In this document: piece after piece, positions 368-24,500 of the stretch | How positions within the stretch are numbered: the first letter of the stretch is position 1 | How the letters are laid out: each line of letters opens with the position of its first letter | IMG/VR virus record: IMGVR_UViG_3300037755_000063 | Location: 1-37,429 of that record | Reading direction: 5' to 3' (one strand) | DNA: 37,429 bases | DNA from: a virus | Taxonomy: Duplodnaviria > Caudoviricetes | Program-made: the position numbers and the translations under genes | Notes under the pieces: model-generated | What the model was told of the DNA's origin: nothing | Database searches by the model: none | Seen by the model: only the letters and a program-made list of their open reading frames with translations

Positions 368-1004
368 TCGCTTCTTCTATCCTTTTGATAAGTTCTTTCC
401 TGAAGCTGAATGTATCCACTTGCCCAAAAGCAAGTGCGAATTTTCTGGCCCAGGGGCTCTTATTATTTGGGGTGGTGGCGACATACATCCATCCTTATAC
501 GGAAGACCTAATTATGCATCAGGTACAGGAAAAACTCTATCTGATAGAGATATAGTTGAGGTAAAGCTTTTAGAAAAAGCTATTGAAGCTAAAATTCCAA
601 TTCTTGGCATTTGTCGGGGTGCTCAGTTAGGATGTGCCGCTGCAGGTGGAATACTTATACAACATGTTAATGAACATGGTCGAAACCACATGATGGCTAC
701 TTCCGATGGTAAAGAGATGGTCACATCAAGTTTACATCATCAAATGATGTTTCCTTGGGAAGTTGAGCATGAGCTAATTGCATGGGCATCTCCCGCCCGC
801 TCTAATGAATATGTGGGTATAACAGAAGAAGAAGCAAAACATATTCCGAAAAAGGAAGAACTTTATATTGAACCTGAAATTGTTTGGTTCCCAAAAATAA
901 AATGTTTAGCTATTCAAGGGCATCCAGAATTTATGGATAGTCAGTGTTTATTCAACCTTTACATAAAGGAATTATGTGGAAGATACGGAATTACCCACTC
1001 CTGA
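345..1004 (+). CDS. Class I glutamine amidotransferase (peptidase C26 / gamma-glutamyl hydrolase-like); proposed CTG start at 345
   Basis: GGGDIHP, PILGICRGAQL (catalytic Cys) and QGHPEF (His-x-Glu) motifs; frame open from TAA 324-326; GAGGA 335-339 lies 5 nt before CTG 345; track start is TTG 420. Confidence 0.85.
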   Translation: MKIYSAYSRFFYPFDKFFPEAECIHLPKSKCEFSGPGALIIWGGGDIHPSLYGRPNYASGTGKTLSDRDIVEVKLLEKAIEAKIPILGICRGAQLGCAAAGGILIQHVNEHGRNHMMATSDGKEMVTSSLHHQMMFPWEVEHELIAWASPARSNEYVGITEEEAKHIPKKEELYIEPEIVWFPKIKCLAIQGHPEFMDSQCLFNLYIKELCGRYGITHS

Positions 1005-1515
1005 TTTCTTAAAAGATTTTGATATAATGAAATTTAAAGGACGTTTATGGATGGAAGATAGAGCTATGCCCAAAAATAGAGATGTAAAAATAAAAATTAA
1101 AAAATTAGACAACTATTTAAATATGTTTTCATTCGGTACATCAGAGTGTCAATACATGCGTCTTTACTTCCAGGAAGCTCCTTGTGGTAATTGTGGTGTT
1201 ATGCAAATGTCTTCTCCTTATTTTATGTTAGGTGAAGAATATACAAAAGATTTTCTAAAATATTTTGAAGCTTTTTCTAGAAGTAGAAATAAATCAGTTC
1301 TTATTGGTAATGACGGTGTAGACAGAGCAGTGTGGAATTCAATTAAAACCTATGGAAAAGGCTACACTTTCATTGAAGCAGGATGGAATAGAAACTATGA
1401 TAAAAGTTCTCCGCATAGAGTGGGCCTTTTTTACAAGAATATAGGTGAGCATAGTTACCCTGACATCTACGGCTTAGGAAAAGCATTTGACCCTCCCAAT
1501 TACAATCGGAGCTGA
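976..1515 (+). CDS. Hypothetical protein, possible degenerate GNAT-fold (CGNCG motif)
   Basis: AAGGA SD before GTG; shares [C/N]CG and C-terminal N-x-N/R...V-x-x-F-x-K pattern with 10098..10541. Confidence 0.55.
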   Translation: MEDTELPTPDFLKDFDIMKFKGRLWMEDRAMPKNRDVKIKIKKLDNYLNMFSFGTSECQYMRLYFQEAPCGNCGVMQMSSPYFMLGEEYTKDFLKYFEAFSRSRNKSVLIGNDGVDRAVWNSIKTYGKGYTFIEAGWNRNYDKSSPHRVGLFYKNIGEHSYPDIYGLGKAFDPPNYNRS

Positions 1516-2317
1516 CCCCGAATTCTTTTTAGTAAGTAAGCTTAGTGGTGGTTTAACGAGTGCTATTAATAAAGTGGGAGGTACAAAGGAACAGCCTAAA
1601 GAACTATCACGGCCTGGGTTCTTTGTACAAGAGGATAATGTGGCAGTTGAATTTAACATCCCCCCTGCAAAAACATTAAAAGAATTTGTAGATTCCGTTG
1701 ACTGGTCTATTAAAGAAATCACTTCTGCTGTAAATGAAAAGCATCTTCGTCCAAAGATTTCTGCTGCTGAGATTTTTCCTCCTTACGAACTTCTGGACCC
1801 ACGTGCACAGCGGTTTGGTTGTGATCCTGATTATAATGCGTGGTTTGAAGGCGCGATGAATGGTAGTCCACAGGCAAGGAACTATTGCCTTCGCTCATGT
1901 GGAGGACACATTCACGTAGGTGTAAAACGTAGAACCGAGAACAAAGAACAAAAAGTGTGGGACATGGTGAGAGCTATGGACCTCTACTTAGGTGTTCCTG
2001 CAGTAATGATGGACACAGATGTAGCAAGACGGGAGCTTTATGGGCAAGCAGGCGCTTTTCGTTACCAGACATATGCCCCCTTAGCATGGGAGTATCGAGT
2101 TCTTTCTAACTTCTGGATTTCCTCTCCCGAACTCGCGGGATGGGCTTATAAACAAACCATTCGGGCAGTTAATCATGTCTGGAAACTCGGGCATAAGAAA
2201 TTTGAGAAACTATTAGCTACAGATGAATTAGGAGATAAAATTCAGGATTGCATTAATAAGTCAGATGTTACCCTCGCTCAACATCTCATCACTGATTATG
2301 ACTTGGTTACAGTCTAG
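1487..2317 (+). CDS. phiEco32-like COOH-NH2 ligase type 2 (glutamine synthetase-like fold)
   Basis: IGADPEFFL, EDNVAVEFNIPPA, FGCDPDYNAW, GGHIHVG, RRELYGQAGAFR, EYRVLSNFW motifs. Confidence 0.9.
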   Translation: MTLPITIGADPEFFLVSKLSGGLTSAINKVGGTKEQPKELSRPGFFVQEDNVAVEFNIPPAKTLKEFVDSVDWSIKEITSAVNEKHLRPKISAAEIFPPYELLDPRAQRFGCDPDYNAWFEGAMNGSPQARNYCLRSCGGHIHVGVKRRTENKEQKVWDMVRAMDLYLGVPAVMMDTDVARRELYGQAGAFRYQTYAPLAWEYRVLSNFWISSPELAGWAYKQTIRAVNHVWKLGHKKFEKLLATDELGDKIQDCINKSDVTLAQHLITDYDLVTV

Positions 2318-2991
2318 TGCCTCAAGAGTTTAGTCCTGATCTTAATAAAAAATATAAAACTACTTATGTAAAGTATGAAAAGGAACTTATATACGTTCAA
2401 GGATTTGAAGATCATAGGGATGATAAAGGTGATATATATCAACAACTATATTTGTCAGATGGTAAACAAGAAAAACAAATACCTTTTGATGAGGACAAAC
2501 TAGAAACAATCTCTCCAGATTCATGTTTCTTTAATCCTTATCCATTAAGTTCTAAAACTAAAAATCATAAAGGAGCAAGAAAGTTCATTCGATCCCCAAA
2601 AAGACAATGGCAAAGAAGTTTGTGTGAAAACGTTGGATCATTATCATCTCCTTTAAGACATCTTTATGGAGCATATAATGTAAGAATTCCTTGGGATGAT
2701 TCAACATTTAAATTCCCAATTGTTAGGGGACTGTTAGAACAAACTTATCCTGGGATTGATGAAGCCATGAAGTTAGTTAAAATAGCGGGGGCTGTTGCAA
2801 TAGGGCCTCTTCATTGCCTCACTGTTTCTTCCATTGGTACAAACCCATTACTATCATCACTATTTGGATTCATTGGAGAAGTTGATCCAAGGAATCAATC
2901 TATTCTCATTCATCATCGACCCGCTTTACAGGAGACACTAGATTTTGTATATAGAACGAACCAAACACGCTGGAAAGTAGTTTATGCCTAG
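2317..2991 (+). CDS. Hypothetical protein within the ligase operon
   Basis: 224-aa ORF, TAGTG-coupled to the upstream ligase and overlapping the amidoligase start. Confidence 0.7.
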   Translation: MPQEFSPDLNKKYKTTYVKYEKELIYVQGFEDHRDDKGDIYQQLYLSDGKQEKQIPFDEDKLETISPDSCFFNPYPLSSKTKNHKGARKFIRSPKRQWQRSLCENVGSLSSPLRHLYGAYNVRIPWDDSTFKFPIVRGLLEQTYPGIDEAMKLVKIAGAVAIGPLHCLTVSSIGTNPLLSSLFGFIGEVDPRNQSILIHHRPALQETLDFVYRTNQTRWKVVYA

Positions 2992-4282
2992 AGTAGAAGC
3001 TCTTCCTCTTATACGTCCACAACGGTATGAATGGATAGAGAATGCTATAGAGGCCGGAGGGATACGAGTAGGACCTCCTCCAGCCCCTCGAAAAATAAAA
3101 GTGCCTGACATGAACGAAATAGATTTTGATAAAACTCCTATAGGTGATGTATTTGGTATACAAACACAAACACTCAATAGTGAAATTATTAAAGATTTTA
3201 GTCAGTGGCATCCTCAACTTTTTGAGAATAGGTATAAATTTCGAGATAAAAATGTTCATATTGGATTGGAAGTGGAAGCAGAGAACATATTAAAAATTGA
3301 TCCGCAGCTTACTCTTTGTTTTTGGTCTGTTCATGAAGATGGTTCATTAAGGAATAGAGGAAGAGAATTTAAAACCTATCCAATGCCTCTTCAATATAGT
3401 GAAGCCGCTTTAAAACAACTATTTAATTCTTTGAACAAAGATGTGGATTTTTCCAAAAGAACTTCTGTTCATGCTCATATTGATATGAGACAGCTTTCTA
3501 TGTCCCAAAGTATGGGAGTTCTTTACACATATGCAGCGATGGAGAATTTATTGTTTAAGTTTGCTGGTGCAAACAGAAGGAACTCTATTTTCTGTGTTCC
3601 TCTTATAGAAACTGATTTACTATTTCATAATCATGGTAAACCAGTAGACATGTTCTTACAACTCTTAAAGAAATGGCAAAAATACACAGCTCTTAATTTA
3701 AAACCTCTACAAACTTTTGGTACAATGGAATTTAGACAACTCCCAGGCACAGATAACATTCAACAGATTTTGATATGGTTGGATTTGTTGACACATATTC
3801 GTGTATTTGCCTATCGCTATCCATTAAAGCACATCATCACCCAAATTTCTGAATTGAATACATCTTCGGCATATAAGCATTTTGTAGATGATGTATTCGA
3901 TTCGTTGTCTGTTTATCTAGACACCAGTAATTTACAAAATGATATGGAGAAAGCCTGTTATCTCATTAAAAATTCCCCGGTAATAAATGATTTTAATCAG
4001 AAGGTGTGCTCTTCAAAAGAGAAACAATCTTCTTTTGCTGAATTTTTTAAACCTTCTGAAGAAGAATTTTCTGAGAATGAAATAAAAACCATTACAACTT
4101 TAGGAATGAGATTTTTTCCTCATAGTCTTTCAGATAATTTAACAAACTGGAATACGATTAGAAAAAATTGGACACAAATATGGAGAATAGCTAATGCAGA
4201 AAATCGCACTTTAATGAATAGTTTAAAATACAAAATATTTGAATCAAATCCAGAGGAACAAAATGAAGAGGCAAATTTCTAG
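2984..4282 (+). CDS. Putative amidoligase (amidoligase_2-like)
   Basis: IGLEVEAE, HEDGSLR, RTSVHAHID, KYTALNL, GTMEFRQ motifs. Confidence 0.88.
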   Translation: MPRVEALPLIRPQRYEWIENAIEAGGIRVGPPPAPRKIKVPDMNEIDFDKTPIGDVFGIQTQTLNSEIIKDFSQWHPQLFENRYKFRDKNVHIGLEVEAENILKIDPQLTLCFWSVHEDGSLRNRGREFKTYPMPLQYSEAALKQLFNSLNKDVDFSKRTSVHAHIDMRQLSMSQSMGVLYTYAAMENLLFKFAGANRRNSIFCVPLIETDLLFHNHGKPVDMFLQLLKKWQKYTALNLKPLQTFGTMEFRQLPGTDNIQQILIWLDLLTHIRVFAYRYPLKHIITQISELNTSSAYKHFVDDVFDSLSVYLDTSNLQNDMEKACYLIKNSPVINDFNQKVCSSKEKQSSFAEFFKPSEEEFSENEIKTITTLGMRFFPHSLSDNLTNWNTIRKNWTQIWRIANAENRTLMNSLKYKIFESNPEEQNEEANF

Positions 4283-4627
4283 ATGTGTAAATTTGCTTGG
4301 TGTGCTGGATTATTTTGTGGAGAAGGATCAGCAGGCGTGGATAAAAATGGGCAACTCCAATTAAGTATCGGTATGCTTGACCATGTGGCAATTGAAAAAT
4401 TTGCTTCAGTTATGCGAATTACGATTCCAAAGAATCGTAGGTTCAAAGTTAAAGGCCGCGTTAATGTATCATATAATGCCCATATTAAAGGTGGAATATT
4501 TGCTAGAGTTCACTTAGGTGGTCCCTATGCAGCATATGTAGCTCGGGCAATGTTACCCTTTTTAAAAGGAACAGCCAAAGGAACCCAAATCACAAATGCA
4601 CTAAAACGCTGGAAAGGAGGCAAATAA
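4283..4627 (+). mobile_element. Free-standing single-motif LAGLIDADG-like homing endonuclease ORF inserted in the ligase operon
   Basis: N-terminal AWCAGLFCGEGS resembles the LAGLIDADG helix with the acidic residue kept; basic 114-aa protein; sits between amidoligase and GATase. Confidence 0.65.
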
Positions 4628-4628
4628 A

Positions 4629-5951
4629 ATTTGTGGCATTGTAGGTCTTATTTGTAAAAATAAGAATGGTTTTTATACATTCCAAGCAGATTTATTTACC
4701 AACATGCTTCGGATGGATTCTATCCGAGGTGAAGATTCAACAGGAGTTTTTGGTGTAACAAAGTCTGGAGAATTAGACTATTTGAAGGGGGATGCTGATG
4801 GGTATAAATTCACAAATTGTGATGATTACAATAAATTCTGTCAAAGAATGATTAAGAATTATAACATTGTGATTGGGCATAATCGGAAGGCAACTAAGGG
4901 TGCGATTAGTGCTCAGAATGCACATCCATTTGTTCAGAAGCACATTTGCTTAGTTCATAATGGAACCATTCATAACAGCAAAGACCTCAACACTGAGGTG
5001 GAGGTGGATAGTGAGGCTATCGCTCACGCATTGGCGGATCACGACGCTCCGGCAGCACTTAAAAAGCTTAGTGGGGCGTTTGCTCTCGTGTGGTTTGATA
5101 AGAAAGATAAGACCCTTTCTTTAGCCAGAAACGATCAACGTACTTTGCACTTGGTTGAGTATGATAATTACTGGGTTATTTCCAGTGAGATTGGCTTGCC
5201 TTTATGGTTACAGGGTAGAGAGGCACGAAAGCACATTTCACATGCTCTCGTTCCAACAAATAAGATTTTGATGTTTAACTTAAATGATTTGGATGCTGTT
5301 CCAAAAGAAGTTGAATATGAAGCATACAAGTATTATACACCCCCTGTAAAAGACTTTAGTCATTATGCTCCTCGATCTAATCCCCCGATTGTTAGGCAAT
5401 TTCCTCGTGGTGCAGCAAGTCAATTGCCAGTTTTGTTAGATGGCACAAACAAAGTTCAAGGTTTAAAAACTGGGGATGTTGTAAAATTTAAAGTGGAAAG
5501 TTATGACGAACAAGTTGGAGATCGTTGTCTGCTTGGTCATCCAATCTTTGGGGAAGATTTAGATGAAAACATTTATGTGCAAGCCATAGTCCCAAAGGGA
5601 GAACAGATTCATACCTATTTGTCCCAAGGTGATTTCTTCACTGCAACTGTTGTACATGTTAGGCAAATGGGTCATAGGATGGTTATTTTCGCTAGAGACC
5701 CTATATTGTGTAAGTTGGTTTCAGATATTGGAGGTGAGGTTCATGATGTTAATGAAATCACCCCTGTTTTAAAGACAGGATGTAGCAGGTGTTTTAAAGA
5801 CATGTTTCTTAAAAATATAGGACAAAGTGTGGTGCAGAAAAAGAAAGACGGGACATGGCGTAAAGTTTGTCCTACCTGTGTAGAAGCATCCATCCAACAA
5901 GCAAAAGAGAACAAAGCCTTGATTATTCCTGCACCAAATTATGTTCAATAA
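4629..5951 (+). CDS. Class II (Ntn) glutamine amidotransferase with C-terminal CxxC...CxxC; starts at ATT 4629
   Basis: ATT-TGT-GGC-ATT-GTA-GGT gives (M)CGIVG, in frame with the track ORF at 4704; AAGGAGG 4614-4620; GHNRKAT, NAHPF, HNGTI, VDSE, GAFALVW motifs. Confidence 0.9.
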   Translation: MCGIVGLICKNKNGFYTFQADLFTNMLRMDSIRGEDSTGVFGVTKSGELDYLKGDADGYKFTNCDDYNKFCQRMIKNYNIVIGHNRKATKGAISAQNAHPFVQKHICLVHNGTIHNSKDLNTEVEVDSEAIAHALADHDAPAALKKLSGAFALVWFDKKDKTLSLARNDQRTLHLVEYDNYWVISSEIGLPLWLQGREARKHISHALVPTNKILMFNLNDLDAVPKEVEYEAYKYYTPPVKDFSHYAPRSNPPIVRQFPRGAASQLPVLLDGTNKVQGLKTGDVVKFKVESYDEQVGDRCLLGHPIFGEDLDENIYVQAIVPKGEQIHTYLSQGDFFTATVVHVRQMGHRMVIFARDPILCKLVSDIGGEVHDVNEITPVLKTGCSRCFKDMFLKNIGQSVVQKKKDGTWRKVCPTCVEASIQQAKENKALIIPAPNYVQ

Positions 5952-6729
5952 GTTTATTGTTTACCCATATAATTTAGGGTCGGCCTCGGCTCGACGCCTT
6001 GCTGAAAGTCTAAACACTCGGAGAGTGCGGCCGAATGGTACATACTATCATCATCGTAGGCACGGTGTGATAAACTGGGGAAATTCAACTCTTCCCCGGT
6101 GGAGCACTCCCCGTGCCTTAGAGAACATGTTAAACAAACCACAGAATGTTGAAGTGGCTTCAGACAAAGTAGCTACCTTTCGCAGGCTGGAACAACACAT
6201 TCCTGAATGGACAACCAACATTGATGTTGCTCGTGGTTGGATTGGTCATCCAAGATTTGGCAGGAAACTTAATGCTGTAGTGTGCCGCACTCTTACTAGG
6301 GCCAATAGTGGTCGAGGTATTGTATTAGCCAGAACTATAGAAGAAGTGGTACCTGCTCCTCTCTACACAAGATATACACCAAAGACTGCAGAATATCGAG
6401 TACATGTTTCATCTAGATTTGGAATTATTGATGCTGCTCAGAAAAGAAGGCGAGATGGGTTTGAGGAGAATGAAAGAGCAAATCAATACATTCGTAGTTG
6501 GGACAATGGGTGGGTTTTCTGTAGAGAGGGTTTGGAACTGCCTGAAGAAGTCAGGAGAGTGGCTGAAGAGTCCATTCATCATTTAGGATTGGATTTTGGT
6601 GCGGTGGACGTAGGCCACCATCCTGAGCATGGGACTACTGTATATGAAGTAAATACAGCCCCTGGATTAGAAGGTCAAACATTAACTAACTACACCAATA
6701 TGTTTAGGAGGTATCTTGGCAATGACTAA
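5941..6729 (+). CDS. ATP-grasp peptide ligase (RimK-like, phiEco32-type)
   Basis: INWG, SDK, SGRGI, EYRVHV, GLDFGAVDV, YEVNTAPG motifs. Confidence 0.9.
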   Translation: MFNKFIVYPYNLGSASARRLAESLNTRRVRPNGTYYHHRRHGVINWGNSTLPRWSTPRALENMLNKPQNVEVASDKVATFRRLEQHIPEWTTNIDVARGWIGHPRFGRKLNAVVCRTLTRANSGRGIVLARTIEEVVPAPLYTRYTPKTAEYRVHVSSRFGIIDAAQKRRRDGFEENERANQYIRSWDNGWVFCREGLELPEEVRRVAEESIHHLGLDFGAVDVGHHPEHGTTVYEVNTAPGLEGQTLTNYTNMFRRYLGND

Positions 6730-11417: not shown

Positions 11418-11809
11418 TGAAAAAAGAACTAGATAGACAACTCTGTGAGAAATATCCTGAATTATTCAGGGGCCGTCATAAATCAATGATGGAAACTCTT
11501 ATGTGCTGGGGATTTGAATGTGATGATGGATGGTTTGAAATTATAGATAATTTGTGTTTAGAGTTAACAGAATATTGTAAGAAGCATGACATTGAAATCC
11601 CAGAGGTTGTACAGGTAAAAGAGAAGTTTGGGGGTTTACGGTTTTATCTTGGAGGTATACATAAAGATCATTTTGATGCCATTTATAAAATAATTTCTAA
11701 AGCTGAGGGTTTGTCATATGTAACATGTGAAGTGTGTGGATTACCCGGTAAACCTAATAAGGAAGGATGGATTCGTACTACATGCCCGGAACACGTTACG
11801 CAGTATTAG
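11417..11809 (+). CDS. Conserved-type phage hypothetical protein
   Basis: ECDDGWF, QVKEKFGGLRFY, CEVCG-x-PG...C-x2-H motifs. Confidence 0.75.
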   Translation: MKKELDRQLCEKYPELFRGRHKSMMETLMCWGFECDDGWFEIIDNLCLELTEYCKKHDIEIPEVVQVKEKFGGLRFYLGGIHKDHFDAIYKIISKAEGLSYVTCEVCGLPGKPNKEGWIRTTCPEHVTQY

Positions 11810-12960
11810 ACACAGAATCTTCGATTTACGCGAAAGGACATCCATTTGCTTCTAGAAATCAATTATGCCTTGTTGGTCTTCGGATTAATGCTGTTAACCA
11901 TATATGGGATATCGAATACACATCAACACCCTACGGTTCCTCATTGGTTCAACTTAATGATATTTTGGGGGGCGTTGATCTTGTTGTGGGCTTTAATCTT
12001 AAGCATGACCTTAACTGGCTAGACCGCTATGGTATTCGCTTACGCGATCATGTTCGTGTATTTGATTGCCAACTTGCTGAATTTATACTTAGCAATCAGT
12101 CTACCCCTTTCCCTAGCTTGGATGGCTGCTGTGCTAAATACGGCCTGCCTCGTAAGCTTGATATTGTTGATCGTGAGTATTGGAGCAATGGAATTGACAC
12201 CCCCCAAGTCCCGATGGAGGTTCTTTACCCCTATCTGGAAAATGATCTGGAGATAACTGATGGGCTTTATCAAGTTTTGGATCGAGGAATTATTCGATCA
12301 GGCCAATCGGCGCTATGCCGATTGTGCATGCAAGACTTGCGAGTGCTCCAAGAAATGGAGACAAATGGAATTAAGATTGGATGGCAAGCCATGGCCGACC
12401 GAGCTGCCCGAACGGAGGAAGAATTAAATGGAATCAACCACCGAATCTTATCTTTTGTCCCTGAAGCATGTAAAGCAGTGTTCAACACCAGCAGCAACGA
12501 TCACATCTCTTTACTATTGTACGGCGGAAGACTCAATACTAAAGTTCCACGACCTACAGAACATACATATAAAACTGGACCTCGTGCCGGAGACACTGTT
12601 ACTCGAAATAAATGGGAAGACTTACACGTTGAATTCCCAAGGCTCGTTGATCCCCTTCCAAAAACCGAGCTTGCTAAAGACGGATTCTGGTCAACAGGAG
12701 CTGATGTTCTAAAAGAGCTTTCTGGGGGGCCAAAGAAACTAATAGACCTGCTGCTAAAGCAGGCGGGAGTAAGCAAACTGCTTACGACCTACTATCACGG
12801 CTTCCCGGCCATCAGAGAGAAGATGGACTGGCAGGATGGAATGCTACATGGTCAATTTAACCAATGTAATGTAATCACTGGCCGTTTGTCCAGTTCGCGT
12901 CCTAACCAACAGAACATGCCAAAGGATATGGATGAATTCATCACCTCTCGTTTTAACTAA
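11767..12960 (+). CDS. DNA polymerase family A, N-terminal subunit (3'-5' exonuclease + thumb region)
   Basis: ExoI LDTES, ExoII GFNLKHD, ExoIII YLEND, METNGI, TGRLSSSRPNQQN; stops before motif A. Confidence 0.9.
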   Translation: MDSYYMPGTRYAVLDTESSIYAKGHPFASRNQLCLVGLRINAVNHIWDIEYTSTPYGSSLVQLNDILGGVDLVVGFNLKHDLNWLDRYGIRLRDHVRVFDCQLAEFILSNQSTPFPSLDGCCAKYGLPRKLDIVDREYWSNGIDTPQVPMEVLYPYLENDLEITDGLYQVLDRGIIRSGQSALCRLCMQDLRVLQEMETNGIKIGWQAMADRAARTEEELNGINHRILSFVPEACKAVFNTSSNDHISLLLYGGRLNTKVPRPTEHTYKTGPRAGDTVTRNKWEDLHVEFPRLVDPLPKTELAKDGFWSTGADVLKELSGGPKKLIDLLLKQAGVSKLLTTYYHGFPAIREKMDWQDGMLHGQFNQCNVITGRLSSSRPNQQNMPKDMDEFITSRFN

Positions 12961-13162
12961 AATTGAAGGTGGATATAGAGTTGAGTGGGAAAATGGGGTT
13001 TATATAGGTGATATTCTAATGAAGGAAGATGGATTTTATGATTTCTGGCCTATACAACATGGGGGTTATTGGCCTTCTTATATACTTCGAGTTATAGCTG
13101 ATAAGTTAGACGAAATTAACAAACCTTGGCAAGATCAGATTGATAATGATCCAAACATCTAA
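12932..13162 (+). CDS. Hypothetical protein inserted between polymerase halves
   Basis: 76-aa ORF, DGFY-x-FWP...L-x2-IADKLDE-x-N motif. Confidence 0.6.
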   Translation: MNSSPLVLTKIEGGYRVEWENGVYIGDILMKEDGFYDFWPIQHGGYWPSYILRVIADKLDEINKPWQDQIDNDPNI

Positions 13163-13313
13163 ACTAGATTTGCCTAAACCAGAAGTCTCTAAATCAGAGA
13201 CTGGTCTCCATTTATGGAAGTATTCAACTAATGAAAATTATGAAATCAGAACCTGTCAACTTTGTGGGGAAATAGAAGCCTATGGACCTGGGGGTTGGTC
13301 ACACGTTTATTAA
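13146..13313 (+). CDS. Hypothetical 55-aa protein (not in track) between polymerase halves
   Basis: MIQTSKLD...H-x-W...CQLCGE... Confidence 0.5.
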   Translation: MIQTSKLDLPKPEVSKSETGLHLWKYSTNENYEIRTCQLCGEIEAYGPGGWSHVY

Positions 13314-13325
13314 TAGGAGAGTCTA

Positions 13326-14063
13326 ACGCTTATCCATCTTGATGTAAAAAGTTTAGAACTGGTCACGGCTGCCTACCTTAGTCGTGACCCCACCCTGACA
13401 GAAGAAATTAAGAATGGGGTCGATATTCATGCGTCAAACCAAACTCGGTTCAATTTACCCGAACGGGTTACCGCCAAAACCTTCGTCTTTAGACTAATAT
13501 ATGGCGGGCAGGCATATTCCTATGCCCACGACCCAGCATTTAATCACATTTCTAAGTCTCAGAAATATTGGCAGAAGATAATTGATGAGTTTTATACAAA
13601 ATACCCTACCATTGCCCAATGGCACCAAGGATTGGTCAGGACGGTGCTAGAGACAGGGCAATATGTGGCCCCTACGGGGAGAGCTTACACCTTCCCCCGT
13701 GCTGATGTAGCCCATCGTGAGTGGTTCTGGAGGCCAAAGATACTGAACTACCCTGTTCAGGGGTTAGGGGCTGACTTAGTGGCTATTGGTAGGGTAACTA
13801 TGTGGAAAAGGCTAAGAAAATTGAGGGTTCCAGTCCTTTTTCAAAGCACCGTCCATGATTCTGTCGATTTAGACCTTGACAGCAAGCTCAATCCATGGTA
13901 CAATATATGTAGGGTGGTAGAAAATTCAATACAAGATATTCCCATTAATTTCGAACGTTTGTTTAATGTTCCTTTTGACCTCCCTTTAAATTGCGAAATA
14001 ACCTATGGACCAAACCTGAGAGACCAACAAAAATATGAGCCAAATAACAATCCTGAAAGTTGA
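13326..14063 (+). CDS. DNA polymerase family A, C-terminal catalytic subunit; starts at ACG 13326
   Basis: Frame opens after TAG 13314-13316; AGGAG 13315-13319; motif A LIHLDVKSLE, DIH, motif B RVTAKTFVFRLIYG, NYPVQG, motif C TVHDS; track start 13632 omits motifs A and B. Confidence 0.9.
   Translation, partial: TLIHLDVKSLELVTAAYLSRDPTLTEEIKNGVDIHASNQTRFNLPERVTAKTFVFRLIYGGQAYSYAHDPAFNHISKSQKYWQKIIDEFYTKYPTIAQWHQGLVRTVLETGQYVAPTGRAYTFPRADVAHREWFWRPKILNYPVQGLGADLVAIGRVTMWKRLRKLRVPVLFQSTVHDSVDLDLDSKLNPWYNICRVVENSIQDIPINFERLFNVPFDLPLNCEITYGPNLRDQQKYEPNNNPES
13876..13904 (+). promoter_or_regulatory. sigma70 promoter embedded in the polymerase coding sequence
   Basis: TTGACA (13876-13881), 17 bp, TACAAT (13899-13904), extended -10 TG at 13896-13897. 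Confidence 0.8.
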
Positions 14064-14589: not shown

Positions 14590-14798
14590 TGGCTAGAGAA
14601 TATGTATTGAGTGAGGATGTACCCCCTCAAATTTTGAGGGTTTATGATGAACCGGGTTTAAGCTGGCGGGATGCTAAGAAAAATCTAAGACAGTGGTATT
14701 TGAATAAGGCACATGAAATTCGTGGTATGAGAGAGCGGGATGCTTTAGTATTGGTCCCACGAGAAGTTATGGATGATTCTGAAGATAGGGTAGTTTAA
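14589..14798 (+). CDS. Hypothetical protein
   Basis: TAATG coupling, GGAG SD. Confidence 0.6.
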   Translation: MAREYVLSEDVPPQILRVYDEPGLSWRDAKKNLRQWYLNKAHEIRGMRERDALVLVPREVMDDSEDRVV

Positions 14799-14897
14799 AG
14801 AGTGCATCCAGCTTTGATAATTTTTATTTCAGGGATTAGTATTGGAATATCTCTAACTACAATTGCTTTTACATTAGTACTTCTATAAAGAGTGCAT
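14796..14897 (+). repeat. 12-bp direct repeat TAAAGAGTGCAT (14796-14807 and 14886-14897)
   Basis: Exact match read from the sequence. Confidence 0.8.
14802..14888 (+). CDS. 28-aa hydrophobic peptide (MHPALIIFISGISIGISLTTIAFTLVLL)
   Basis: GTG start, single TM-like stretch, bracketed by 12-bp direct repeats. Confidence 0.4.
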   Translation: MHPALIIFISGISIGISLTTIAFTLVLL

Positions 14898-15035
14898 AAC
14901 CCGGCTAGAGGGCTCACCAGTCCAACAGGGCTGGTGGCCTAGCTGCTCACCCCCGAGTGCTGGTGGAATTCCAGCGAGGACTTGGTGTCTGGAGCCGGGC
15001 CTTACAATGCGTCGCAAGCGAGCTTGCTCGCGCCA
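14893..15035 (+). ncRNA. Candidate structured ncRNA (three-way junction) upstream of tRNA
   Basis: GC-rich intergenic island; closing stem CCCGGCT/AGCCGGG, hairpin CACCAGTCC-AACA-GGGCTGGTG, arm CCGAGT/ACTTGG with GCTGG-7nt-CCAGC, then GCGAG-CTTG-CTCGC. Confidence 0.6.
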
Positions 15036-15110
15036 GCCCTATTAGTTCAGTGGTAGAACGCGGAGCCTGTAACTCCGAAACAGAGGTCCGATTCCGTCTA
15101 TGGGGCACCA
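15036..15110 (+). tRNA. tRNA-Thr(UGU), non-canonical
   Basis: Acceptor GCCCTAT/ATGGGGC-A-CCA, D arm GTTC-AGTGGTA-GAAC, anticodon stem CGGAG/CTCCG with loop CCTGTAA, T arm AGAGG-TCCGATT-CC(G)TCT. Confidence 0.85.
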
Positions 15111-21566: not shown

Positions 21567-24500
21567 CAGCGAGGCCCCTCCGGGGACGACTGCCCTTCCA
21601 GTTGTTGGTATAACATCCACAGACGCTGTTGTTTAGGCGTCATACCCTGACCTGTAGCCCTAATGTCAGCTTCTACAAGGCGGTTAAAAACTTCGCGTTT
21701 AACAGCAGTTTGGAGTTCTTGTGAACTAAACCCCTTCTCGGCAATGCTTTGCCAAAGGGTAGGCAAGCGTTCCATGTCCTTATTACTAAGTATGATGTCT
21801 ACAGCCCTACTCACATCTTTAGTCATTGTCTTTAGACGTTGCTTGGCTGTATAGAATTTAGTCTTTTCATCCCGCTCCTGGGTTGTATAGGTGCCTAACC
21901 TACGGGCTGTCCAGTCCTTCTCAGTGCGGGTGTAGGGGCCTGCAGCCCCTCCAGCCTCAGCATAAGGCTGTCCTTCAGGAGTGTACGTTTTCTCAATAGG
22001 TCCCCAGGCCGGGAATCTGGGTGTCACTCCCTTAAAAGCTTCCCTCTTTTCCGTGGGTCCTGGAATGTTGCTTTCTCCAGCAATACCAGTTGATTTAGCA
22101 ATCATACCACCAAATTTAGCAGCCTCTCCCCAGAACTGAAGTCCAGGAGCAGACCAGAATTGCTGTTCAGCTAAGGAAGGGGAGGCAAAGGTGGGACCTA
22201 CGGATAGGTCAAAAGGAAGGGCTTCCGACAGGAGGCCATACCTTAAGGCAGGGGACTTGAACTTAGAGGCAATCCACTCTGTACCTGTGGGGATGTTATA
22301 TCCCCACAAATCATTAGCCAATTTAGCTAAAGCGTCCCATTCCTTAACCCCCACAAACCCTAACATACCTGCTGTTAGCAGACTTGTAGACAGGAAGGCC
22401 CCTAATGGCAATTGCTTGGCTACAGAACCCTCTAGGAGGCCCTGGCCGCTTAGTTTGGTGTACTCCCTTAGGGTACCCAGCCAGGTAGTTGCAAAGCTTT
22501 TAAGAGGGCTCATAGCCATCCCTACCAACCCTGTTCTAGAGAAAATGTGTGGTTTTTCATAGAACCTCATGGACACCATATAATGGTCCGTCATTTCCCT
22601 AGCTACCTTATAAATCTCCATCTTATCTTTGGCTATCTTGTCATAGCCCATTTCCCTAAGCATTTCCAGAAACATATGTGCGGCTGGCCTACGGACAGTC
22701 TGCCCCTCTATCCACATAAGGGTGGATAAGCCTGAAGCATGATCTATTAAAGACCTCTTATAATGGGGTGAGGAGTCGCCTGCATAGGTAGACCAGTCAT
22801 ATTTGAAGGTGGCATCAAAAGCATTCACCTTAGCAAGGTTGGTAGCATCCTTAGACTTGTCCCATTTACCATATTCCGTCAACCCTCTAGCCATAACATT
22901 CATAATTTTAGCCGGATTAATACCGGCTTGGGCTGCCATAGACAGAAGTTTAGGAGGCATGAATGAAGGGGATTGAATAAGCTGAGCAGCAATGTGGATG
23001 GGGTTAAAGAATCCCAATAATAGAGTAGTTTTAACCTTATTACCTTGTCTCAGAAAATCTCTAAGAAATCGTTGGGGCAGCCGGAGCTTGCCGAGACTCC
23101 CTATTGCAATAGTGCCACTGACTGTGGCTGATAATGTACGGGATAGCTCATCAAAGGTTTTGTTTGAACCACCTCGGGCTTGGTCAATAGCCTCAAGAGC
23201 CCATGTTTTCGTGTACGGAAGATGATCTGCTTCTTTAAGTTCTCTAACCTGGGTGTGAATTTTATCAAGTTGACGATTCGCCAAGAAATCGTAGGCTTGG
23301 CGAATACCTCGTTCATAAACTTCTTCATATTGTCTGACCCCCTTAATTCCACCTTCAGTGCCACGGGCACCTTTAACACCCTTACGTTTTAAACCATGTT
23401 TACCAAACCCCAACCTACGATAGCCCTCGTGAATGGCCTTAGCAGCAGGGTCTCTAGCCTCTTTGGAAAGTTGTCGTAAGACAGCCTCCAATTGAGAGAA
23501 ATCCATTTCTCCACGAGGCACTTCTTCCACAATTTCTATTTTATATTCAGGGAAAGACCTTTTAATCTTCGCCTCATTAGGACGTAAATAGGAACCCTCC
23601 ACTTTAACAGTGTTGCCCTCTTTATCTATAAACTTGGTCCTAAAAGGACCATCAAAGGTGGCAGAAGACCAATAGTGGGGGAGTTCTTGGATGCTTTCCT
23701 TGCCTTCGGCAACTAGCGCCTTATTAACCTCAGCCAACATTTGCTTATTAACCTTCACTCGGTCTAAATAAGACTGTAGTTCATTACGAGCCAAATCTCT
23801 CCCAATTATTTCTCTGGCTTTAGCTTGAATTCCAGCCTCTCCAATCCATGCTTGTTCACCTTGGAGAGCTTGTCCCACTTCGTTAGTGGCAATCTTCTGT
23901 TCTTTGTTAAAATTCTTCCATAAGTAATTGGCTGTACCAGGATCAGGGGCTTTACGACTAGCCCCATGCAGAAGGCTGTTAGCCTTCTGGATAGCTTCTT
24001 GTTTAGCCCAGTGGATTTGGGAAGAAGTCCAAGAAAGGAGAGGATTGCCTTGAGCAATGAATCTACCTTGAATGATTTTACCAATAGTATTGTAAGAGGC
24101 TTGATCTGCTAATGTGTCTTTCTTAACATCTTTAAGGGTGGCAGCCACTTCTTCAAGAGTTCTCCGGTCAGCATACTGTCTTTGGAGTTGTTCAGCCCCA
24201 GACGTAGCAGCCCCTTCTGAGGCATGAGCCTTTGGCTCAGCTACAGGCTTATTACGAGCAGCCCAAAGAGCTTTAACAGCCTCTTCAGGAATCTTAACAC
24301 CTTGGTCTTTGAGTTGTTGTTTGAAGTCTTTGAGTTCAAACGCACCAGGAGATAATTGATCAGGTGATTTGTCATAGAGGCGTCTGACTTCAGAACTAGA
24401 CCCTTGAATAATGTCTGCACCCACCCGAATCAATTCAGAGAGGTAGTTGTGCTTGTTCTTGTCGAAACCCAGCAAATTGCCAATAGCTTCTACGAACCGA

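Follow-up and report, generated by a model that had tools for sequence, protein, structure and literature searches.

What is the non-coding island that abuts a tRNA-Thr gene in this phage genome, and what might it do? The first-pass annotation saw in positions 14893-15035 a single GC-rich structured RNA, built on a three-way junction and able to switch between alternative pairings. The composition is as described, with 66% GC in the island vs 43% in the window (the whole stretch of DNA analysed, 37,429 nt), and the listed sequence features all lie at the positions given for them, including GCTGGTGG at 14930 and 14959. Rfam returned nothing over 14893-15035, either at the gathering cut-off or at E<=10. 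The three-way junction is borne out by homologues with covarying stems, and the proposal of a new phage structured RNA adjoining a tRNA agrees with both the lack of an Rfam match and the strong covariation reported below. The suggestion that RNase P, cutting at tRNA base 1, would free the 3' end of this RNA is plausible. The proposed switch, the single unit and the tRNA-specific role fared less well.

Anatomy of the element and its genomic setting

The window is a 37-kb virus record, ~79% complete, which encodes amidoligases, a primase, a helicase, an exonuclease, an HNH nuclease and a DNA polymerase in two genes. Its nearest cultured relatives, judged from two proteins, include the Methylophilales phages MEP401/402 and an Alcaligenes phage; MEP402, which is filed under Zobellviridae, has the same gene order, and we regard the phage of the window as a Zobellviridae-like podophage. 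Since MEP402 keeps this order with the small ORF and the exonuclease gene just 9 nt apart, and lacks the tRNA/RNA islet, the non-coding stretch is an islet inserted in this clade. Elsewhere in the window, the family A DNA polymerase (11767-14063) is divided into two genes with small ORFs between them, as it also is in MEP402, and glutamine amidotransferases, an amidoligase, a COOH.NH2 ligase and an ATP-grasp-type enzyme cluster at 420-6729, where they probably form a modification pathway. A promoter scan upstream of the element gave 2 sites vs 1.8 expected, none above chance. No RNA run was found among those containing the sequence, and run X19, probably DNA, does not extend over the element; neither result bears on expression. 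The features of the locus are collected in Table 1.

Table 1. Features of the element and its immediate neighbours (window coordinates)
Feature	Position	Strand	Evidence or remark
28-codon hydrophobic ORF, GTG start	14802..14888	+	stop 11 nt before P1; not present in relatives
Module A, conserved three-way-junction RNA, long-armed variant	14900..14999	+	fold, homologues, near-identical contig in run X8
P1 5' strand CCCGGCT	14900..14906	+	partner 14993-14999; two-sided changes in 6/7 pairs over 10 copies
J1/2 joiner AGA	14907..14909	+	family consensus AG, extra A in window; U-A-G invariant 10/10
P2 arm: GGGC/GCCU base and 9-bp hairpin 14915-14936	14910..14940	+	alignment, fold
J2/3 joiner AGCUGCU	14941..14947	+	family consensus ACUGYU, extra G in window
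P3 arm, base CACC/GGUG	14948..14987	+	family conserves the base alone; rest is extension and cap
P3 cap hairpin GCUGG-UGGAAUU-CCAGC	14959-14975	+	7-nt loop
J3/1 joiner UCUGG	14988..14992	+	invariant 10/10
P1 3' strand AGCCGGG; 3' boundary of module A	14993..14999	+	covariation; run X8 contig breakpoint
Linker CCUUACAAU	15000..15008	+	matching linker in L001 ends at tRNA-Gly base 1
Module B, small hairpin unit: GC-NN-CGCAA, tetraloop hairpin, GCC-A/C	15009..15035	+	L001 homologue; relocation in X2/X5
tRNA-Thr(UGU), CCA encoded	15036..15110	+	ARAGORN and Rfam

Module A follows the family order P1, AG, P2, ACUGYU, P3, UCUGG, P1'. Folding energy is by itself a weak argument for it, z being -2.6 for 14900-14999 and -2.0 for 14893-15035; the real support for the fold comes from the homologues. 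P1 has a pair probability of 0.79-1.0 when the element is folded in isolation, which goes down to 0.06 in a fold of 14860-15110, because its 5' side is able to pair with the tRNA 5' strand; co-transcriptionally, P1 would form before this competitor. A further extension of the junction by TGCAT (14893-14897) and ATGCG (15007-15011) had been suggested: the letters are present, yet the pairing has a probability of 0.1-0.3 and no equivalent was seen in homologues.

The window copy is unusual in both arms and in its core. Its P2 arm measures 31 nt, vs 12-15 nt in the other nine aligned copies, with one U-G in the 9-bp hairpin, and the P2-closing pair is G-U where the family has G-C. The base of P3 is able to slip along the C run to CCGAGU/ACUUGG, the conserved register being 2.9 kcal/mol worse than the slipped one. 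Relative to the family the joiners carry two one-base insertions, while CUGCU and UCUGGA are exact. Given the extra A and extra G in the core and the disfavoured P3 register, this copy may be a weakened family member. The hairpin capping P3, which we take to be T-loop-like, is present as annotated; its ViennaRNA probability is 0.05, yet forcing it costs only 0.5 kcal/mol. In the family as a whole, RNAalifold proposes C-G, U-G and G-U pairs between J2/3 and J3/1, none of which varies; such non-canonical pairing may extend P3 onto P1 as an irregular helix, unproven because the bases are invariant.

Module B carries the tetraloop hairpin GCGAG-CTTG-CTCGC at 15018-15031. The register of this hairpin, already noted in the first reading, is backed by the GAAA-looped counterpart in the closest relative (L001:1882-1912), which has another stem sequence; the calculated probability is 0.17 vs 0.62 for an equal-length rival, GCAAG/CUUGC. 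The CCA directly before the tRNA is likewise present (15033-15035), but is not a conserved feature, being CCC in L001. Window positions 15002-15040 are also matched with 5 differences, in a different context, by a 12.9-kb contig of run X7. Module A was rejected as a tRNA or tRNA-like RNA: NCCA follows P1 in 0/6 single copies, the CCA of module B is not conserved, and ARAGORN and Rfam found nothing tRNA-like in the element region besides 15036-15110. In the tRNA-Thr(UGU), position 33 is C rather than U and the T stem is bulged; L001 shows both traits (C33 in L147 as well), and the tRNA might be a nuclease-resistant variant.

Homologues of the junction in podophages and T4-like phages

Podophage homologues were located by gene order, not by fold. 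In L001, whose exonuclease is 96% identical, the same slot holds a different cassette, comprising a 55-nt junction, tRNA-Gly, a tRNA-like RNA and a module-B-like hairpin, followed by the same tRNA-Thr. L146 (67%) and L145 (69%) have two further versions of the junction directly before tRNA-Thr. The P1 strands of the four podophage copies are CCCGGCU/AGCCGGG, CCCAGUU/AACUGGG, GGGACU/AGUCCC and AUCUGGCU/AGCCAGAU. P1 ends 6-9 nt before a tRNA in L001, L145 and L146; the distance from the preceding stop codon to its start, measurable in five single copies, is 6-13 nt. Nine distinct relatives have a tRNA ahead of the exonuclease gene; the element was found in the DNA examined of three, which are the three closest. 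Model R2 matched 2/80 metagenome loci and 1/50 whole viral records of exonuclease relatives (30 further viral loci were covered as flanks only) and 0/5 named phage genomes. A junction descriptor tolerant of arm length, tuned to admit the window copy, gave one match in the window and none in 300 shuffles of it; in 169 exonuclease loci it gave three matches, 3/3 in the expected slot.

Other stable-RNA candidates occur in these islets. The tRNA-like RNA of L001 (1802-1881), undetected by ARAGORN and Rfam, ends in CCA and has acceptor, D-like and T-like arms with a 9-nt anticodon-like loop, and related phages have other structured non-tRNA stretches with closing stems just upstream of tRNA-Gly (L211:1657-1784, L292:2097-2250). 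On the upstream side, the 5' part of a 69-codon ORF (window 14590-14668) is identical in L001 at the DNA level and contains a perfect hairpin at 14624-14640. A 12-nt perfect direct repeat, TAAAGAGTGCAT, flanks the 28-codon hydrophobic ORF (14796-14807 and 14886-14897) at about the points where the relatives' cassettes join, which suggests a recombination joint.

The island had been read as a single 143-nt unit ending in CCA, which does not agree with contigs from other sequencing runs, where modules A and B swap order or separate. In runs X2 and X5 (one study) the ORF is followed first by module B and then, after about 60 unread bases, by the 3' end of module A and tRNA-Thr. A contig of run X8, from another study, agrees with 14887-14999 save for one difference; it does not have the small upstream ORF and diverges exactly after 14999; the long-armed module A is thus present in a second study. 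The reversed order in X2/X5 and the occurrence of A without B in X8 indicate that A (14900-14999) and B (15009-15035) are separate cassettes.

This reshuffling also bears on the proposal that one 143-nt RNA toggles by partner exchange between the two copies of GCUGGUGG, which we consider very improbable. Both swaps can be drawn, and P3 and module B of the window fold have near-equal local registers. The swapped pairs, however, have probabilities below 0.01, cost 6.3 and 11.7 kcal/mol and are absent from homologues; the repeated 8-mer turns up in 273/2000 shuffles of the stretch (14%), its second copy sits in an arm that the compact homologues lack, and modules A and B are reshuffled independently.

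Beyond the podophages, a conserved-joiner pattern found the fold in 7/18 viral loci, and a second, overlapping pattern scan found it in 14/101 loci, corresponding to six distinct sequences (12 of the 14 loci have all stems of at least 4 bp, and 2 have one P1 mismatch). Four of these six are nested twins or a triple in T4-like contigs, behind a promoter of TTGAC-TATAAT type (sigma-70-type). In these nested arrangements the outer copy is circularly permuted, with P3 open, and a ~10-bp helix is common to the two junctions; the third copy in L397/L462 is a P3-open monomer. In L383 a single copy separates a gp32-like gene from the ribosome-binding site of a recA-like gene, with no adjacent tRNA, and in G008 the junction element stands at the head of a non-coding cluster that includes a manA-like RNA. 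The first-pass annotation proposed a role specific to tRNA processing, with which the occurrence of the same junction far from any tRNA is at odds. After the junction in L459 (1571-2010) we observed ~450 nt of non-coding DNA with a manA-like RNA at 1804-1991 (46 bits vs a cut-off of 55); manA is reported to occur in T4-like cyanophages (PMC2864571).

In the alignment of 10 distinct copies, near-invariant joiners (U-AG / ACUGYU / UCUGG-A) surround three variable stems. Pairing holds in 96% of 150 cells, 12/15 pairs have two-sided changes, and the covariation score is 0.83 vs 0.28 for shuffled alignments and at most 0.21 for slid partners, the sequences being partly related. These figures lean high, because motif and fold were the criteria by which the six non-podophage copies had been chosen, and four of the six are closely related; the invariance of the joiners is inflated as well, because 6/10 aligned copies were found by patterns that fix them. 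Cross-matches between podophage and marine copies are independent of this selection bias: a model built from the four podophage copies matches the marine copies with E 6e-5 to 2e-4, and model R3, built from the six non-podophage copies, finds L146 (E 9e-10), L001 (E 2e-8) and only half of L145. R3, built from compact copies, missed the window copy, probably owing to its long arms. The C(UUCG)G loops of two marine copies, together with promoter orientation, indicate that the sense strand is the RNA; its folding energy is lower in 8/10 copies, a weak strand test, the difference being <3 kcal/mol in three podophage copies. On this comparative evidence we conclude that the junction RNA family is real and undescribed, and that the window adds to it a single, P1-closed, tRNA-adjacent, long-armed form in mid-operon, which extends the family to podophages.

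Comparison with known RNA classes

Searches outside this set returned little. Rfam found nothing over the element in L001, L145/L146, L305/L314 or L459/L460/L462 (E<=1), and blastn of the window, L001, L314, L146 and L383 stretches against cultured phages gave tRNA parts or short chance matches only. Viral scans with window-sequence patterns recovered the L001 contig alone (1 match; 1/11; 1 with the tRNA pattern); with 19/64 parts scanned for one such pattern, L001 was 1 of 120 loci listed, the others being chance or coding. The tRNA-Thr pattern had no match in metagenome contigs, and 0/26 matches of one narrow pattern in cellular genomes fold. A model match at window 22415-22485 (E 0.07-0.09) lies inside a long ORF and was taken as chance. 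Literature searches retrieved no description of the ACUGYU/UCUGG junction motif; the part of the supplements of Fremin et al. 2023 that was searched holds no match to the motif words (PMC10690425), and the remaining supplements may include it.

Several classes were rejected on specific features. A riboswitch would need an expression platform, which the element lacks, and the genes and RNAs downstream (tRNAs, a recA-like gene, the non-coding cluster and unrelated early ORFs) point to no common regulatory target. Sponge RNAs of CsrA/RsmA present repeated ANGGA in hairpin loops, a word absent from 9/10 sense regions. The element resembles the 16S S15 junction, the ykkC riboswitch, kink-turns, boxA and xrRNAs in some respects, but does not fit them in strand order or key bases.

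Among self-cleaving RNAs, hammerheads have the core strands CUGANGA and GAAA; CUGANGA was found in 0/10 regions on either strand. The strand-swapped twin of the marine phages presumably resembles dimeric hammerheads. The element shares with hammerheads I-III a small three-way junction, a conserved unpaired core, permutation and tandem copies in phage operons, polycistronic phage RNAs being reported to contain hammerheads in tandem and in each of three permutations (PMC3088659). It differs in lacking CUGANGA, in its joiner lengths of 2/6/5 and in the absence of an Rfam match. Theta ribozymes, which have the HDV pseudoknot fold, are alike in being structured RNAs that sit at most a few bases from a phage tRNA gene. 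They are tied to the tRNA 3' end (10.1101/2023.06.13.544163), whereas module A precedes the tRNA and is a simple junction with no conserved pseudoknot in the alignment and no Rfam match. The 7-nt-loop hairpin of the window and its GCUCA and GCAAG words resemble, in our estimation, parts of twister-sister. The catalytic centre of twister-sister and TS-like ribozymes is an internal loop of 5 and 6 nt with the cut at a conserved CA (PMC11620745). The present element is a three-way junction in which CA follows GYU in 3/10 copies, the hairpin is not conserved and Rfam gives no match. Closer in kind are phage decoy RNAs (pseudo-ToxI, RNA anti-CRISPRs) and the non-tRNA stable RNAs included in the T4/T5 tRNA clusters, all small, repeated or co-processed with tRNAs, and acting or possibly acting in trans; their fold differs from that of the element, sequence likeness having been compared via Rfam only.

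What the junction may do

The reading that we prefer, at a probability of roughly one in three, is that module A is a binding module released as a decoy RNA. It would be transcribed on the + strand within the phage replication operon, having no promoter of its own; host RNase P, cutting at tRNA base 1, would free its 3' side, and an endonuclease acting at the A/U-rich 5' linker would free its 5' side. Once trimmed, the small stable RNA would serve as a decoy, capturing through its junction a host protein, possibly one with a role in phage defence or RNA decay.

The form of the family is consistent with this. Its fold has a near-invariant junction with free arm length and loops, in two strand topologies and in arrangements of one to three copies, and the element stands between a stop codon and stable-RNA genes. 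Conservation in the junction with covarying stems and free loops is what a recognition pocket or surface would be expected to show. Since the junction occurs both P1-open and P3-open, the chain entry point is immaterial; this disfavours a directional exonuclease block or an expression platform and places the function in the junction itself, independent of chain direction, which leaves catalysis or binding. The marine T4-like phages carry twins (~10 bp apart) or triples just behind a promoter, and the podophage element lies in a swappable islet of stable RNAs (tRNA-Thr, tRNA-Gly, tRNA-like RNA, module B). Copy number aids binding, not a single cut, and we prefer a dose-dependent binder because of the extra early-transcript copies and the place among swappable stable RNAs. 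Phage tRNAs, for their part, have been proposed as a counter to host defences that destroy tRNA (PMC10264068). Against a decoy, the sequence suggests no partner (besides the scarcity of ANGGA, boxA and C/D box are absent in all sense regions), the gp32-recA copy in L383 has no neighbouring tRNA for release, and the window copy departs from the core in its two insertions and P3 register and loses P1 in the longer fold.

Self-cleaving ribozymes are just as typically permuted and placed at intergenic sites in phages (PMC3088659), and a new small ribozyme class that would cut the polycistronic transcript inside the junction is a possible though rather unlikely alternative. It comes close behind the decoy because hammerheads share permutation, tandem copies and phage sites (PMC3088659). 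A cut here would part the mRNA from the tRNA precursor or give early messages a 5'-OH end. The size (~50 nt), the three stems with a conserved unpaired core, circular permutation and variable arms, and the intergenic sites 6-13 nt past stop codons would all suit a ribozyme, as would the precedents of hammerheads permuted and in tandem in phage polycistronic RNAs and of theta ribozymes beside phage tRNAs (10.1101/2023.06.13.544163). However, the element has no known catalytic core, no Rfam ribozyme match and no conserved pseudoknot that we could see, the 5' ends of tRNAs are already made by RNase P, and it is not obvious what a phage would gain from cutting a transcript two or three times within 150 nt of its promoter.

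The position of the copies could also point to a protein-binding site that acts in cis, through which the transcript would be protected or processed (as a stabiliser, a nuclease guide, or an antitermination signal heading untranslated stretches). All copies lie at the start of untranslated RNA, either behind a promoter or 6-13 nt past a stop codon, and the post-stop copies have tRNAs, the non-coding cluster or a ribosome-binding site downstream. We consider this reading unlikely: two topologies and strand-swapped twins are ill-suited to a directional signal, module B intervenes between the stop codon and A in X2/X5, and 6/9 related tRNA islets have no copy in the DNA examined. A small-molecule or ion aptamer, whether the sensor of a riboswitch or a sponge (e.g. 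one that soaks up an immune signalling nucleotide), is in our judgement improbable. A compact junction in which ~15 bases hardly vary, with tandem copies where expression is early and high, would suit it; against it stand the missing expression platform and common downstream gene, which speak against a riboswitch, the absence of the fold among the cellular pattern matches (one pattern), and the absence of any clue to a ligand.

We tentatively envisage the junction as the core of an undescribed RNA class traded as a cassette among unrelated phages, which would be either a new ribozyme class or a sponge for a host-immune protein or signalling nucleotide, supplied as 2-3 early copies or by release from a tRNA islet. 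The family is probably under-counted, since long-armed members escape models built from compact copies. This 50-nt fold, whose core is fixed and which exists in two topologies and in naturally long, short, single, twin and triple versions, lends itself to direct tests of function; evidence of self-cleavage or binding would mean an additional ribozyme class or a counter-defence based on RNA. The family, which reaches from large T4-like phages into small podophages, moves with tRNA islets, and this bears on what such islets supply besides tRNA.
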